DNA from: Camelus ferus
Lineage: Eukaryota
DNA length: 64,000 nt
Reading direction: 5' to 3'
NCBI RefSeq assembly: GCF_009834535.1
Contig: NC_045696.1
Coordinates: forward strand, 75,642,001-75,706,000
Shown here: piece after piece, positions 11,687-55,964 of the stretch
How the letters are laid out: the number at the start of each line of letters is the position of its first letter
How positions within the stretch are numbered: position 1 is the stretch's first letter
Translations under genes and position numbers: made by a program
The notes under the pieces: model-generated
Seen by the model: only the letters and a program-made list of their open reading frames with translations
Told to the model about the DNA's origin: nothing
The model's database searches: none

Positions 11687-11847
11687 TAAAAAATTATTTT
11701 TATTTTGTTTATCTTTTTTTTGGAGGAGGTGGAAGTAATTAGGTTGATTGATTGATTGATTGATTTTAGTGGAGGTACTGGGGATTGAACCCAGGACCTC
11801 ATGCATGCTAAGCATGCACTCTACCACTGAGCTATACCCTGCCCCCA
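11687..11847 (-). mobile_element. tRNA-Ala(AGC)-derived camelid SINE (Vic-1-like)
   Basis: Minus strand GGGTATAGCTCAGTGGTAGAGTGCATGCTTAGCATGCATGAGGTCCTGGGTTCAATCCCCAGTACCTCCA plus (AATC)n and an A-rich tail. Perfect 15-bp TSD CCAACCCACTTTTTT at 11672-11686 and 11848-11862. Confidence 0.93.
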
Positions 11848-39100: not shown

Positions 39101-41063
39101 CCCACAGGATGCCATGCCTGAATAAGCTCTTATGCTTAAAATTTAAGTTGCAACTTCAAGTGCATGTGCAGAGCAGTGGTTTTTAAACTTTTTTTTTCTC
39201 ATTGGAAAATCAGTTTATTCAAATGCATGTAGGAAACTCCAGTAATCAAATATTTGAGCTTTTCTTCATGGAGAGAAAGGAATGAGACTAAGAGCTTTTT
39301 TTTTTTTTTTTCTTACCTCTTCACTTGTAAAAACTTATAAACTACTGTCTAAAGAATTTTGACTATATTGCAAAAAAATTTGCAAAATACATATATACAT
39401 ATAAAATATATAAAACATGTTTAATGTGTTGACGTGACTGAAACATTCTGAAATTCCTGGATGACAGGCATCACATTGAAATATGTGTGGAGAATTGTTG
39501 TTAGGAAATCATATCAAGATAAGCAATTTTTCATATTTAGAATGAAATGTTAGGAGAATAGATGTATCTAGATATTGAGTTTACAACAATATTAATGAAG
39601 TCTCATTTCTCAAGGCTATATATTAGAGAAAGAAAAGCAGGCAGAAAAAGTTGTTTAGTTGCCAAAATTGTGTAACTCAAATATTTAGCAAAAGTTAAGC
39701 TTTCATAAAATCTACCACATTGATATATTTTCTCATTGCTGTTTTGGGTGAACACTGTATAAATAACTCTGTGGTTTGTTTAGTTATAAAAACTGATGCG
39801 AGGTGAGTACTGTCACATAGCTTTGCAACAAGGTGAGGAGATAGGTGCTCCTTCTGTCTGATAATGAGGAAAGTGTAGCTTCAGTTTGAGGATTCTCACA
39901 TAATGAAAAGTGACACATTTGCCCATTAAGTCTGAGATCTCTAATTGATTAGGTTCCATTGGTAAATTTAAAATAAAAAGCAGGATTCAGATCTTAGCTC
40001 TAAAGTTTTCTAGTTCAAATGATCTTGTCTTGCTAGGACTTGTGTAATAGCCTCCTGACTATTCTCCCTTCTATGAAATGAATCCTTCCCTGACTGCATC
40101 AGCCTGCTTCCAAAAAAAAAAAAAAATCACTGTACTGAATTAAGTGTTTATTATTACAGTTGTATGGATTTATTGATAATTATACTATAGATATATGGAT
40201 ACAGATACAATATACAGTTGACCCTGGAACAATGCAGAGATTAGGGGCGCTGACTCCTGCACAGTTGAAAGTCCACATATAACTTTTGACTCCCCCAAAA
40301 CTTAACTATTAATAAACTACTGCTGACTGGAAGTCCTACTAATAATGTAAACAATCAATTAACAAGTATTTTGTATGTTATTTGTATTATATACTGTATT
40401 CTTACAATAAGCTAAGCTAGAGAAAAGAAAATGTTATTAAGAAAATCATAGAGAAAATACATCTACAGTACTGTACTGTATTTATCAATACCTTAAGTTT
40501 GCATCATCTGTTTACAAGATGAATTGCCTGTCAATACCTACATCAATATTGTCTTATATAATAAAAACACTGTAATGTGATGCATATTACTAACACTAGA
40601 CATCAAAAGTGAAAAAGAAATTCATATTTATTTATGGGTATAATGATTCGTGCACTGATAATGAAGAAACAGCAATGACTGCATTATGATAGCCTAGTGT
40701 AATCGATACAACAGCTTCATGGTAGCCTGGCCTAGACACTAATGAGTGAATTGTTACAAAATGTTTATAATATACAGTAGTACAGTCATATTTGTAATAC
40801 AGTATTGGAAACATTGTTACTTTTTTTTTTTAAAAACCACTTCCTTGTGATGATAGGCTGATATGTGGTCTCTCCAATTATAAGGGAGAGAGGGATACTG
40901 TATAGTAACATTAATTCTTTGAAAGCAAAATTATAAACAGTAAGAAAAATAACACATGATTGATTTTATATTAAATACCACTTCCATACAAGTCTTGCAC
41001 ATAATGTTCTACATGATGAATACTTAGGTGATAATGATGATAACACAAAAGTGTCTCATATTT

Positions 41064-41229
41064 AGGGGGAGGTTATAGCTCAAGTGGTAGAGTGCATGCT
41101 TAGCATGCACAAGGTCCTGGGTTCAGTCCCTAGTACCTCCCCCAAAAGTAAATAAATAAGTAAATAATTACCTCCCTCCTGCTGCCAAAATAAAGAAATA
41201 AAATAAAAATAAATAAATAAAAAAATTTG
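41064..41229 (+). mobile_element. Vic-1-like tRNA-Ala SINE nested in Tigger
   Basis: GGGGGAGGTTATAGCTCAAGTGGTAGAGTGCATGCTTAGCATGCACAAGGTCCTGGGTTCAGTCCCTAGTACCTCC plus an A-rich tail. TSD core TGTCTCATATT at 41052-41062 and 41233-41243. Confidence 0.93.
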
Positions 41230-41399
41230 AAATGTCTCATATTGTTCTTGCCATACCATTATTAGGTTTTCACATGAAGATACGCATATGCATGATGTTT
41301 ATTTATTAGTCAGTAAGTGGAAGTGGATCATTATAAAGGTCATCATCTTTATTTTGAGTAGGTTGAGGAGGAGCGGGGAGAGGAAAGGTTGTTCTTGCT

Positions 41400-43137
41400 G
41401 TCTCAGGGTGGCAGAGGTGGGCAAGGTGGAGGAAGTGGAAAGGATGGCAGCAGAGGCAAGCACACTTGCTGTAACTTTATGGAAATACATTGTAATTTCT
41501 GTCTGACTTTTTTGCTTTTTCATTTCTCTAAAAATGTTTCTAAATTTGCTTTGGTTTCTGTGCCCATATCATAGAAGGGTCCATCTCATTAAAAAAGTCA
41601 AGAGCAGTCTTGAGTAACTGGAACCCTTCTGCCAGATTGTCTAATGTCAGTTTGTTTTCTGGCACTGCTTCTTCTACATTGTTTTCCTCAGCATCTTGCA
41701 CTGGCCCAGAAGCGCTCATCTCCATCAGGTTGTCTTCTATGAATTCTTCTAGTGTAGTTTCTATTTGACTTTGAATTTCTCCCAAGATGCACATCTTGAA
41801 ATCCTTTGGTTCCCCCACCCCAATTTTTTTTTCTTTTTTTTGCCATATCCATTGTCTCTTTCATGATTTCCTTGACTGGCTCTGCCATAAATCCTGTGAA
41901 GTCATGCACAACACCTGGACACAGTTTTCTTCAGCAAGAATTTATTATTTCAGGCTCAATGGCTTTCAAAACATCATTTCTGTAGCAATGGTGGCATCTT
42001 CAATGGTGTAATCCTTCCAAACTTTCATGATGTTGTCTCTGTCGGGGTTCTCTTTGGTAACAATGACAATCTTTTCTATGAATATCATGTGTAATGAGCC
42101 TTACAGACCTTAAGACCCCCTGATCTAGAGGCTTAAATTAGAGTTTGAGGAGAGAGTAGACCACTTTGACGGCTTCCAGTGTTGAACTCATGGGGTTCTG
42201 AGTGGCCAGGGGCATTGTCCAATATCAGAAGAACTTTAAAAGGCAATACCTTACTAGCAACATACTGTCCTGACTTCAGGGACAAAGCATCAATGAAACT
42301 AATCCTGCAAAAGGGTTCTTATTATCCAGGTCTTCTTTTGCACAACTAAAAGACTGGCAGCTGGTGTTTGTTTTTTTTTCCTTCAAACTCCAGGGTTAGC
42401 ATCTTTATAGACAAGGGCAGTCCTGATCATAAACCCTACTGCACGTGCACCGAAGAGTCGAATTAGCCTGTCCCTTCCTTCCTTAAATCCTGATGCTCAC
42501 TTTTCTTCCTTACTAACAACTGTCCTCCTGGAAATATTTTTCCAGAATAGGATACTTTCGTTTGCATGAAAAATTTATTCACGCAGATATCCTTTCTCCT
42601 CAGTGATTTTCTTCATGGCATCTGGGAACTCTTTTGCTGCCTCTTGGTCAACAGAAACTGCTTTTCCTATTATCTTGACTTTTTTTTAAGTCAAACCTCT
42701 TTCTAAAATTATCAAACCATTCTATGTTGGCATTAAATTCCCTAGCTTTACATCCTTCTCTTTCCTTTTGCTGTAAGTAGTCATATAATGACTTCACTTT
42801 TTCTCATATTGTATTAGAGTCCATACGTTTGTCTTTCTTATAGCAATCCTGCATCCACATAAAAGCTGCATTTTCAATGCAAGTAAAAAGGTATTTAACA
42901 AGAGGTACAAAATTTTCACATCTGCTGGCATAGCTACAGTGACAGCTTCGAGAATTTCTTTTTCCTGTTTTTATATTTGTCCTTATGCTGGCTTTATCTT
43001 GAAGTGGTGGGCAAATGCAGCTGCAGACTTCCATCTATGGTCCATATCAAACAACTTAAGTTTTTCTTGAATGTCATGACTTTTCTCTGCTTCTTGGGAG
43101 TGCCAGCATCACCAGTGGCACTTCATATGGGTCCCAT
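41400..43137 (-). pseudogene. Decayed pogo/Tigger transposase (CENP-B-like HTH plus DDE_1)
   Basis: ATG at 43137 followed by PKKQRKVMT. Fragments CIENAAFMWMQDCYKK, HDFTGFMAEPVKEIMKE and EEAVPENKLTLDNLAEGFQLLKTALDFF lie in different frames, with many stops and frameshifts. The 3' end is approximate. Confidence 0.85.
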
Positions 43138-43430
43138 GGTGCTATTCAAGATTTATGGCATTACACTTAACATGATGAAAAATACATAAGAACCGTGAGA
43201 GATCACTTTTTACTGCCATGTACAATTTACTGGAGAGAAAACTGCTCACAGAAAACTGTGATTATTAACATCACACCACATTTTAAGCAGTTACTCCCAA
43301 CACTTGAACTCACCGCAACAGCAACAGGAAGTGGCTGTGAAATTATTACAGAAGTACAGTATGTACTCCAGTTAATTTTATGCAGTTATGATTTAATACT
43401 GTGTCCTTTCCACTTGTTTACACTTCTCTT

Positions 43431-43857
43431 TTTTCTTTTTTTTAGTATGTGTATATTTTTATTAAAGTATAGTCAGTTTACAATGTTGTGTCAATTTCTG
43501 GTGTACAGCTTAATGCTTCAGTCATACATGAACACACATACATTTGTTTTCATATTCTTTTATACCGTAAGTTACTAGAAGATATTGAATATAGTTCCCT
43601 GTGCTATACAGTATAAACTTGTTGTGTATCTATTTTACATATGGCAGTTAGTATCTGCAAATCTGGAACTCCCAGTTTATCCCTTCCCACCCTCTTCCCC
43701 TCCAGTAACCATAAGTTTGTTTTCTATGTTTGTGAGTCTGTTTCTGTTTTGTATATAAATTCGTTTGTCTTTTTTTTTTCAGATTCCACATATAAGTGAT
43801 ATCATATTGTATTTTTCTTAAGCATGCACTCTACCACTGAGCTATACCCTCGCCCGC
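43431..43857 (-). mobile_element. Chimeric retro-insertion: 39-nt SINE 5' half fused to an L1 3' UTR of about 390 nt
   Basis: Minus strand GCGGGCGAGGGTATAGCTCAGTGGTAGAGTGCATGCTTA joined to AGAAAAATACAATATGATATCACTTATATGTGGAATCT...GACTATACTTTAATAAAAA. One perfect TSD TACACTTCTCTT at 43419-43430 and 43858-43869. Confidence 0.88.
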
Positions 43858-44184
43858 TACACTTCTCTTGACTGCAAATGGTGCCATATAGAGTCTGTAT
43901 TTGTGTGCATAAGTTTTGAGAAAGTTTCCCTTTTTATAACAAATTTGTATATATTTTATGGTAGCAAATGATAAAACAGACTAGTATCTATGTATATTTT
44001 ATGCATTCATGACACATCTAACTTCTTAATTTTTTCAGTATTTCTAGGGTAGGCCAGTGCATCTGTTTATTTTTTTAATTGTTGCAAATTTCCAAAAAGT
44101 TTTCCTATGTATTTATTGGAAAAAAATCCCCATATAGCTGGACCTGCACAGTTCAAACCCATGTTGTTCAAGGGTCAAGGTTTT

Positions 44185-53440: not shown

Positions 53441-54627
53441 CTCTTTGTGAATAGTAGTTGCTTTCTAGAGGGTCAAGAGAATGATTTCTAAGACTTTGAG
53501 GACAATGGGACATAAGATAACACCAACTAGTAACCCTTCCTGGACATGCAGACAGAAAATACACCTTTGAATATGGCACTAATTTCTGGATACTCTTGAC
53601 ACATATAAGGGGACCAAAAGATGCTGTGAGGTCATTCCACAGTGGTATTTCTGATTCGTAAATCCTAAGTCAAGACTAAACATGTTTCGTTACTACTGAA
53701 GTTTGTAGAACCCAATCTGTCAGCATCCCAGATAGAGACATACTATGCCCCATTTCTCAAACTGATTTAATTCTGTGATGCTTTTACTTATGCAACACTT
53801 AACATCTTGCACAAACAAACATGGGAAGTATTTGTTCTACGAAGCATTCATGTCAAACAAATATACTGGCTAATCAGACCCTGGAACACTATTATTTATA
53901 ACTGGCAAGTTTTTAATATTTGCATTTTTCATGCTGGAGGTTTAATTATTTTATTCACATAGCAGTCTCAGCATTAGTACTCTCCCTCACTTGAGGAAGA
54001 TGTTACCTGCATGTGCAAAGGGGGTTTTACACTATAGATGAGGAAGCTGCAAAATTATAGATTTCAGAGCTTCTATAGGATCTTCCCTCCTAGAGACAAA
54101 GGGAGAAAACTTTGCTCTCTAATGGAAACAAATTCTGTCTTGGAGGAGAGAGGGGAGATTCCCAGGTTTATAACAATAATCCTTTAAAGTGTAAACAAAT
54201 AGCTCCAGAGTTTATCACTCTATGAATTATAAATGTAAGAGTTCAGGAAAATAAATCTCTATATTTTTCCAATGGTTTTTATCTATTTTTCTAGAGAATT
54301 TCTGCTTAGTCATTCTTTAACTCAATGTTGCTGGCAGTCATTGCTCAGAAAGCCCTGAATGGGCAAAAACATTGAAAATATTCATATTTTCTTCACAATA
54401 CCATCTACTATCAACTTGGAACAACATGACCAACTCCAAATATGTTCCTGATTCAACAATATTTCTACTATCCATCCTAGCAAAGCACTCCCTTCATGGA
54501 ATGACTACCCGGAATAACTCCAGGACATGCAGACAGACTTACAAAGTAACTTGTTACATGAAAAACATAAGTAAAAATTAGATTCTAGAATAGAGTATCC
54601 CTTAGTATTTAGCACTTCATAAATATT

Positions 54628-54796
54628 TCTGTATATAATTTTTTATTGAAGTATATTCAGTTTACAATGTTGTGTCAATTTCTGGTGTACAGCATATGGT
54701 TCAGTGATACATGAACATACATATATTCATTGTCATATTCTTTTTCACCATCAGTTACTAGAAGATATTGAAATTAGTTCCCTGTGCTATACAGTA
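54628..54796 (-). mobile_element. Young L1 3' terminal fragment, same family as the one at 43431-43818
   Basis: TTTTTTATTGAAGTATATTCAGTTTACAATGTTGTGTCAATTTCTGGTGTACAGC...AGTTCCCTGTGCTATACAGTA is near-identical to 43456-43613. Confidence 0.9.
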
Positions 54797-54797
54797 C

Positions 54798-54964
54798 ATA
54801 TTTTTAAATATTTTATTTATTTATTATTGTATTATTTATTTCATTTTGGCAGGGGAGGGGAGTAATTAAGTTTTATTTATTTTTAAAGGAGGTTCGGGGG
54901 ATTGAACCCAGGACCTCATGCATGCTAAGCACGTGCTCTACCACTTGAGCTATACCCTCCCCTC
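54798..54964 (-). mobile_element. Full-length Vic-1-like SINE directly abutting the L1 fragment
   Basis: Minus strand GGGGAGGGTATAGCTCAAGTGGTAGAGCACGTGCTTAGCATGCATGAGGTCCTGGGTTCAATCCCC plus an A-rich tail. Confidence 0.92.
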
Positions 54965-55817
54965 AGTACTCCGTAAATGTTAACTATTACAACACAAACT
55001 ATGTCTAGTTTGTTCATTTTATCTGCGTATATGGTGATGTTGCTATTGTTGGCTTCCGTATTTGTAGCACTTTTTCCAGATAGTGTGGAATGAACTAAAA
55101 CCGAGGCGGAGTTTTGGAGGCTTGAAATGTAAACAGAAACCAGAAATGTGGATGGAAATTTACATATTGGGTATCAGGTCTAATTCACTGTGTAAGTATT
55201 GGATAGGTGGATGGTAGCAAAGGATGGAAGATGGGGTAGGGATCAACTAAGACAGACAGCAAGTCAGCAATAGATTTTTCCATGAAAAGAAATTAATAGG
55301 ATTTAAACAATTTGAACCATAAATCTCAAGTCAAGGGCCAAGAGTTAACCTGGGATGAAAGGGAATCAGTTATGACAGCGGCTGTCAGACGAGAGACTGT
55401 GTTGATAAACGCTGACAACTGAGAGCACTGCTATTTCTGCTGGCTCTTACTGTCCTAATAGTGCAGAAGACACGTTGGCGCCTAGCTTTTCTTACAGGCA
55501 TTTCAAGGATTTAGAACCTGCTGGAAAGATCATTTGGTAGAGAGATCCTCGACAATATTTTCTCCCATGAGGAGAAAAGCATTCGCATGCCTGTCTGCTT
55601 CCAGCTGACTAGTCCCCAGGGCACTTTGCCTGCTGTGATCCTGACTGTCCTCTCCACACCTATTCTGTAGCTGATAGCCTCCTTTGCTTTTATTTAAAAA
55701 CGTTTTACACCTTTCATTCTGTGAGTTCATTCTGGGATAAATGACCGCTTTATTGTAAGAGTTTATGTATGTAGGTATGTAGGCATGTATACATGTATTT
55801 ATTACTGTCTTAATTTT

Positions 55818-55964
55818 GGGGGGAGAGTATAGCTCAGTGGTAGCATGTGTGCCTAGCATGCATAAGGTCCTGGGTTCAATCCCCAGTACCTCCATTAAAG
55901 ATAAATAAATAAAAACCTAGCTTTACCTCCCACCAAAAAAAAAAAAAAAGAAGAAGAAAAAAAG
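55818..55964 (+). mobile_element. Vic-1-like tRNA-Ala SINE
   Basis: GGGGGGAGAGTATAGCTCAGTGGTAGCATGTGTGCCTAGCATGCATAAGGTCCTGGGTTCAATCCCCAGTACCTCCA plus poly(A). TSD ATTYATTACTGTYTTAATTTT at 55797-55817 and 55965-55985 (2 mismatches). Confidence 0.93.

Follow-up and report, generated by a model that had tools for sequence, protein, structure and literature searches.

How did the first 38 to 39 nucleotides of a tRNA-derived SINE come to be joined to the 3′ end of an L1 element in this camel genome, and what does the position of the join, in the part of the SINE that corresponds to a tRNA anticodon loop, say about the RNA from which it was copied? The first-pass annotation of the window (the whole 64-kb stretch of DNA analyzed here) had read this locus as a fossil of SINE RNA being processed like a tRNA. 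In the following, the anatomy of the insertion, the predicted fold of the SINE RNA at the join and the routes by which the two RNAs may have been connected are described.

Anatomy of the insertion and of its surroundings

On the minus strand the element is composed of a 5′ copy of a target site duplication (TSD, 43869-43858), a SINE head (43857-43819), an L1 3′ end with an A tail and a 3′ copy of the TSD (43430-43419). The TSD is an exact 12-bp repeat, TACACTTCTCTT, whose copies at 43419-43430 and 43858-43869 were both found on one strand. It occurs twice in the 64-kb window (43419 and 43858) and 0 times on the other strand, its extension past 12 bp fails, and none of 1500 random 40-mers of the window gave an anchored match as good, which confirms the earlier observation of one perfect duplication round both parts. 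The pre-insertion nick site reads TC/AAGA in element sense, a motif of the ORF2p endonuclease that is also counted as such (“Yes”) in Table S4 of Law and Burns (2026; PMC13174262). SINE head and L1 end lie in sense to each other and are joined without added bases. The locus thus shows a TSD of at least 7 bp round both parts, the ORF2p motif and an L1 end with an A tail, as they are known from 5′-RNA/3′-L1 chimeric insertions. Because of the single TSD, the sense orientation, the L1-type nick site and the A tail, a 5′-RNA/3′-L1 chimera made by L1 is the best reading of the locus, and it probably arose in a single event. The same four features bear out the annotated role of the L1 machinery in fusing a 5′ small RNA to L1, but not the route by which the RNAs were joined. 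The product lacks the B box and is probably an inert fossil. Among the 23 sequencing runs listed, from three organisms, 20 contain 59-74% of the words of the 1.5-kb junction surroundings, a share that concerns the surroundings and does not by itself show the junction; in the other three the share is 0.02-0.03, which gives no evidence on the allele.

The L1 part has a length of 389 nt (43819-43431, minus strand) and opens with EKYNMISLICGI*, the last 12 codons and the stop codon of the L1 ORF2 (43779..43819). These are followed by the L1 3′ UTR (43444..43778), with an AATAAA at 43463-43458, and by a short A tail of 13 nt including one G (43431..43443). Together with the 38-39 nt of the SINE and 1 nt shared by both, this agrees with the annotated L1 end of about 390 nt joined to a 39-nt SINE head. 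The 3′ UTR is 88% identical over 168 nt to a further L1 end at 54796-54630, and no second copy of the junction region is present within the 64-kb window. A pattern scan for L1 gave 0 matches in viral contigs and a single contig among the bacterial genomes, L005, which has a length of 937 bp, is mammalian and was taken as L1 reference. The whole contig (L005:1-937) is mammalian DNA in a bacterial genome assembly, comprising two L1 3′ ends and the C terminus of ORF2p, and its mammalian origin makes it a contaminant of that assembly. Its ORF, with the end of which the ORF2 codons of the camel element were aligned, matches residues 1151-1273 of human L1 ORF2p in a PDB sequence search (E 2e-50), while a Pfam search of its ORF2 end gave no match. 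On the DNA level, L005 and the element are 84% identical over about 92 nt at the junction. Because L005 is no camelid reference, we infer the bases upstream of the L1 break from a relative.

The SINE head (43819..43857, minus strand) consists of 38 nt plus the shared A and is derived from tRNA-Ala(AGC). It contains a 6-nt 5′ extension, the A box (about 43844-43834), the D arm and the 5′ strand of the anticodon arm. The B box is absent, so that the annotated retention of the A box and loss of the B box was confirmed by the alignment with four full copies. In a sensitive search of the window five SINE heads were identified, of which only the one at 43819-43857 is truncated. The tRNA regions of the four full sister copies are located at 11770-11841, 41068-41144, 55823-55894 and 54887-54959. 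These copies have tRNA-Ala(AGC)-like heads and A-rich tails; all four were called tRNA-Ala(AGC) by ARAGORN, and three of them score above the Rfam tRNA threshold. Over tRNA positions 1-33, with a one-base insertion taken out of two copies before counting, the head is identical to them at 32, 32, 30 and 27 of 33 positions. Its G-rich 5′ extension and the A at model position 2 are common to all four copies and its GAGTGCATGC variant is found in two. From the extension and the identity to the copies it follows that the head derives from the SINE, and from a subfamily with GAGTGCATGC.

A candidate name for this SINE, to be taken as a lead, is vic-1. Reportedly, vic-1 was described as a SINE of camels by Lin and colleagues in 2001. 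In SINEBase it is listed as a simple SINE of camels (PMC3531059), which resembles the present one in being built of a tRNA part plus a tail, the truncated copy at the junction comprising the first quarter only. The search for camelid SINE copies outside the window gave 0 matches in viral contigs and four SINE-query matches in metagenome contigs, all of them microbial tRNA-like loci and 0 of them a camelid SINE. The metagenome contigs L001 (789-923) and L003 carry dense clusters with 13 tRNA genes in 1.8 kb, in which an uncalled tRNA-like gene with an apparent insert after the anticodon was observed.

The SINE/L1 element lies within a decayed DNA transposon of the pogo/Tigger type (40215..44180, minus strand), presumably a Tigger, at a distance of about 310 bp from one of its ends. 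This host transposon has a length of about 4 kb including inserts, is near-complete with transposase remnants, and shows terminal inverted repeats (15/23). An HTH_Tnp_Tc5 match (E 9e-4, below the Pfam cut-off) was found in one of eight frames scanned. The transposon also holds a SINE at 41065-41225. Other copies of it were sought with 0 matches in viral contigs and none in phages or plasmids, and genome G001 gave no host-transposon match beyond the L1 contig.

A second SINE/L1 pair is located at 54609..54981 (minus strand), where a full-length SINE (54962 to about 54800) is followed in sense by a 170-nt L1 3′ end within a decayed 19-bp duplication. The copies of this duplication (54963-54981 and 54609-54627) agree at 14 of 19 positions and differ by five transitions. 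As a flank repeat of SINE plus L1 it is equaled by 2 of 1500 random 40-mers; the SINE alone has no TSD, 456 of 1500 random 40-mers being as good as its best candidate. The locus is probably an older full-length chimera of the Alu/L1 type, the decay of the repeat leaving some doubt, and SINE and L1 are joined in it without any loop break. Of the five SINE heads identified, two appear to be connected to L1 ends, a hint that chimeras of this kind are frequent in the genome.

Position of the junction and predicted fold of the anticodon arm

The junction base (43819, minus strand) is shared by the SINE, as tRNA position 34, and by L1, and is located at the apex of a predicted GTGCATGC-UUA-GCATGCAY hairpin. 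In comparison to both L1 copies in L005 and to all four SINE copies the overlap at the join is exactly one A. An overlap of at least 1 nt is expected in about 42% of random joins, for which reason it was not counted in favor of any model. The break comes after tRNA position 33 or after 34, the first anticodon base, so that the non-L1 part ends inside nt 30-40, the anticodon loop of the tRNA model, as in tRNA-half/L1 chimeras. A uniformly placed break would hit the 7-nt loop with a chance of 0.04-0.13, by the length allowed, for one breakpoint; at one locus only, the break in this region is suggestive, no more.

The term anticodon loop denotes a position in the tRNA model here, as the predicted fold of the subfamily is a triloop hairpin. 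In in silico predictions for decayed genomic copies, treated as unmodified and protein-free, the anticodon arm of three of the four copies forms a hairpin of 8 bp that is closed by a UUA triloop. In the two copies most similar to the head, the triloop is more stable than the 7-nt loop by 4.1 and 8.4 kcal/mol, and opening the 7-nt loop by force costs 4.1, 8.4, and 4.2 kcal/mol in the three triloop copies. The copy at 54887-54959, which is least changed from a tRNA-like arm, alone keeps the 7-nt loop as best isolated-arm fold. In the full-length folds of all four copies U32-U33-A34 is unpaired with a probability of 0.99-1.0, whereas for the four loop bases that follow this probability is about 0.3 in 54887-54959 and about 0 in the other three. 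The annotated stop in the anticodon loop, at the first base of AGC and with about 1 nt of ambiguity, is thus right as to position 33/34 and the one shared A, but the loop itself is predicted as a UUA triloop in three of four copies. The anticodon arm is palindromic in the copies at 11770-11841, 41068-41144 and 55823-55894 and the tRNA-like loop is retained in 54887-54959; in the former three a subfamily shift away from tRNA structure is possible, judged by the predicted folds.

According to these models the junction would lie at the sole exposed spot of the arm. Such a location is in keeping with a nuclease as well as with a priming cDNA end or a DNA hairpin, and tRNA-like processing is not thereby shown. 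As in tailless retropseudogenes, the 3′ truncation falls into a predicted single-stranded stretch (UUA, 0.99-1.0). The TSD does not directly follow the truncated end: four contiguous bases after the head match the TSD, and then L1 sequence continues. A TSD abutting the head is given only if two successive insertions are assumed, a possibility that is discussed below.

Relation to published chimeras

The class of tRNA-half/L1 and SINE/L1 chimeras has already been published, and the camel locus is a real example of it. The tRNA-half/L1 type goes unmentioned in the first-pass annotation, which names U6/L1 as the classic case. For human L1, 21 tRNA/L1 chimeras, typically halves, were described (Law and Burns, 2026; PMC13174262). 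The 13 halves among the 21 are antisense in ten cases and sense in three, namely Tyr-TAT 1-37, Tyr-TAC 1-35 and Arg-AGA 1-38 (Table S3). The authors connect the tRNA/L1 breakpoints with cleavage by angiogenin, RNase L and RNase T2; twin priming is their proposal for the mechanism, given that most of the chimeras are antisense (PMC13174262). The camel element resembles them in that a 5′ half is fused to a 5′-truncated L1 within one TSD, but theirs are derived from tRNA genes and mostly antisense, whereas it is sense and originates from a tRNA-derived SINE. The tRNA isotypes Tyr and Arg-AGA have introns, and their 5′ exons are therefore natural RtcB substrates. The confinement of the sense halves to these isotypes suggests RtcB mis-ligation of 5′ exons to L1 RNA, a point absent from the passages of PMC13174262 considered here. 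The pattern supports ligation as a source of sense halves and shows no sense half of an intron-less tRNA.

The same study comprises 452 Alu/L1 chimeras, mostly sense (83.2% in the legend, 88.5% in the text) and full length. Cut sense Alu heads on L1, like AluSp:1-84 with an exact 19-bp TSD, AluJo:1-260, AluJr:7-258, and AluSp:1-80, the TSD of which is doubtful, are among 88 of the 452 rows of Table S4 (PMC13174262). In these chimeras a sense SINE is likewise located 5′ of L1 in one TSD, and a few heads are 5′-intact and 3′-cut. Alu, however, is 7SL-derived and lacks an anticodon arm, and most of the Alu parts of these chimeras are of full length, whereas the camel head is cut.

Furthermore, U6/L1 chimeras with TSDs of 6-19 bp are formed by RtcB ligation and their junctions are without an L1 motif, while both routes are left open for 3′-cut small RNAs (Moldovan et al., 2019; PMC6789731). 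As in the camel element, a Pol III RNA is connected directly and in sense to an L1 of variable truncation, and a TSD is present. U6 is joined in full length and has a natural cyclic phosphate, whereas the SINE RNA is cut short here. A sense direct join without added bases is found at the camel locus and is equally expected from a template switch.

Finally, the ends of tailless retropseudogenes fall in single-stranded regions, and SINE RNAs are among their sources (Noll et al., 2015; PMC5322556). These copies are 5′-complete and 3′-truncated with an end in a single-stranded loop, as predicted for the camel head, but they abut the TSD with 2-18 nt of complementarity, whereas here the L1 end intervenes before the 3′ TSD. 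Tailless retropseudogenes were reportedly treated by Schmitz and colleagues in 2004, as cited in the 2015 work of Noll and colleagues. No fusion of L1 with a tRNA-derived SINE head truncated at the anticodon arm came up in the literature search, a weak negative given that most subscription papers were outside its scope; in titles and abstract openings no report of loop cleavage of SINE RNA was found.

Routes to the SINE/L1 junction

The route which we tentatively favor, without calling it probable, is a single L1 insertion during which reverse transcription switched to an intact SINE RNA as template. As the anatomy shows, ORF2p cut the target at TC/AAGA, and some 390 nt of L1 RNA, beginning at the A tail, were turned into cDNA. 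Copying would have halted in the A-rich stretch at the end of ORF2, where the cDNA end reads ...TTTTTCTT-3′ if the shared base is that of L1. This T-ended cDNA may then have primed again at A34 in a co-packaged SINE RNA, at the sole spot of the arm that is predicted as unpaired, and 38 nt would have been copied up to the SINE 5′ end and then joined to the target, a cut RNA being unnecessary.

The single exact TSD, the nick motif, the A tail and the shared orientation are in line with a template switch, as is the predicted exposure of U32-U33-A34 in all four copies next to four bases that are paired in three of them. Tailless retrocopies, too, end in loops and have SINE RNAs among their sources, and for them internal priming is preferred and cut intermediates were not found (Noll et al., 2015; PMC5322556). 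The L1 part opens with AAGA, equal to the four bases of the target, which is seen post hoc at 4 of 357 and 7 of 657 L1 positions (about 1%). T-richness of the primer end should be of consequence for priming but not for ligation, in which no L1 motif was observed (PMC6789731). SINE and L1 are in sense both at 54609-54981 (probable) and in the 452 Alu/L1 cases, some sense, 5′-intact and 3′-cut Alu heads being present among 88 of the 452 rows (PMC13174262), and template jumping by purified ORF2p was observed with Alu and with poly(A) RNA (PMC7617806). In the L005 homologues a purine precedes the L1 break, so that this side is not a cut of the RNase A type or of RNase L. Against a template switch, the pairing would be limited to a single Watson-Crick pair plus a G-T wobble and would reach at most the lower end of the 2-18 nt cited for tailless priming (PMC5322556), and a T-rich primer should rather favor the long A-rich 3′ part of the SINE. 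Moldovan et al. doubt switching onto RNA without poly(A) and class 3′-cut U6/L1 cDNAs with overlaps of 1-3 nt as RT-PCR artefacts (PMC6789731). All three human sense tRNA halves (PMC13174262) are Tyr or Arg-AGA, which points to ligation for sense halves, the folding was done in silico for unmodified, protein-free RNA, and the template jumping in vitro is not shown to be internal. Two further candidates were rejected: twin priming gives antisense heads and the head here is sense, and for a SINE inserted into a longer L1 the L1 sequence 5′ of the head is missing.

The most serious competitor, which we consider possible and somewhat doubtful, is a SINE RNA cleaved in the loop and then ligated. 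An endoribonuclease, either RNase L (UU^A or UA^G) or a member of the RNase A family, would leave a 2′,3′-cyclic phosphate, RtcB would join the 5′ half to a 5′-OH L1 RNA, and the product would be retrotransposed in one step; in a variant, the cDNA would jump onto the free 3′ end of the half. RtcB links cyclic-phosphate RNA to 5′-OH L1 RNA, a route allowed for 3′-cut small RNAs (PMC6789731), 13 of the 21 human tRNA/L1 chimeras end at nt 28-39 (PMC13174262), and an overlap of 0-1 nt is compatible. The RNase L site is UN^N and angiogenin cuts tRNA-Ala between loop nucleotides 3 and 4 (10.1101/087106), the latter cut being one of the two join registers here, so that both registers fit reported nuclease sites. 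Cleavage also predicts the position of the join most sharply and has a sense precedent. In the human halves, sense copies are three of four in intron-bearing isotypes and zero of nine in the others (Fisher p 0.014, post hoc), which speaks for ligation and leaves intron-less tRNAs without a sense half. The sharp prediction meets a single breakpoint with a chance of 4-13%, a tRNA-like 7-nt loop is not predicted for the arm of the subfamily, and the homologues show no pyrimidine or UN cut site on the L1 side, U6/L1 junctions being without an L1 motif as well. In sum, a join in the old anticodon loop fits enzymatic cutting, a template switch fits about as well, and the locus cannot separate these two.

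Under two successive insertions, which appear unlikely and are absent from the first-pass annotation, a tailless SINE head would have made the 12-bp TSD, and L1 would have inserted at the recreated TT/AAGA, since the 3′ end of the head (..TT) beside the TSD start (AAGA) forms a canonical nick site; the second duplication, of at most 4 bp, would be masked as microhomology with the L1 start. This would account directly for the AAGA match, as the L1 start equals the first four bases of the TSD and matches 8 of 12 overall, a level reached by about 1% of L1 12-mers (5/349 and 5/649), and both SINE copies of the tailless kind and repeated insertion into 3′ ends are known from the literature. The figure of 1% is post hoc and comes from A-rich sequence, and two independent insertions at the same base with an unusually short second TSD would be needed. 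The TSDs of L1 range from 7 to 20 bp. Less likely still is a later deletion, by which the 3′ portion of the SINE and the 5′ portion of the L1 would have been removed from a full SINE/L1 chimera or an adjacent pair, perhaps starting at an 8-bp inverted repeat with the junction at its apex. A full-length SINE/L1 unit does lie 11 kb off, and the break is centered on an 8-bp palindrome with a 3-nt spacer that could form a DNA hairpin too. The overlap is just 1 nt, the exact TSD and the identity of 32/33 to sister copies suggest little time for a second event, and events inside a 450-bp insert that spare both TSDs should be uncommon. Very improbable, finally, is an origin of the head as the 5′ half of a pre-tRNA-Ala with its leader, that is, as an ordinary tRNA-half/L1 chimera. 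Simple SINEs are little beyond tRNA and tail (PMC3531059), and two C bases in the 5′ extension of the head differ from the sister copies. However, all four SINE copies likewise have the G-rich extension and an A at model position 2, and two of them have GAGTGCATGC; the SINE 5′ extension and these diagnostic bases speak against a tRNA gene transcript as source, in a comparison made with the SINE copies.

The template switch onto intact SINE RNA thus remains our tentative choice. The proposal of a loop-cleaved SINE half ligated to, or switched with, L1 RNA keeps the fit of both join registers to reported nuclease sites, but loop ends are also given by internal priming and one breakpoint is at hand. 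The wider claim, a fossil of SINE RNA processed like a tRNA, is not supported in view of the one breakpoint (4-13% by chance), the triloop fold, the loop ends typical of tailless retrocopies and the 3′-cut heads of Alu, which has no anticodon loop.

As a single locus the element is an inert fossil of a described class and matters only as a pointer. The choice between cut RNA with RtcB and template switching for 3′-cut small-RNA heads is left open in PMC6789731 and in PMC13174262, as far as the parts considered here go. Far more junctions than the 21 human tRNA cases would be expected from a simple tRNA-Ala SINE that has a high copy number and exposes a single triloop, and a breakpoint count in camelid assemblies could therefore separate the routes cheaply. 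It is rather unlikely, yet conceivable, that camelid SINE RNA with its refolded arm was still cut at the exposed UUA in the germ line, RNase L-like cutting at UU^A fitting best, and was ligated to L1 RNA by RtcB, which would have left a family of sense SINE-half/L1 chimeras that share a junction at 33/34 and can be counted. If true, these would record, in dated form, how anti-retroelement RNA cleavage and mis-repair acted on a SINE.
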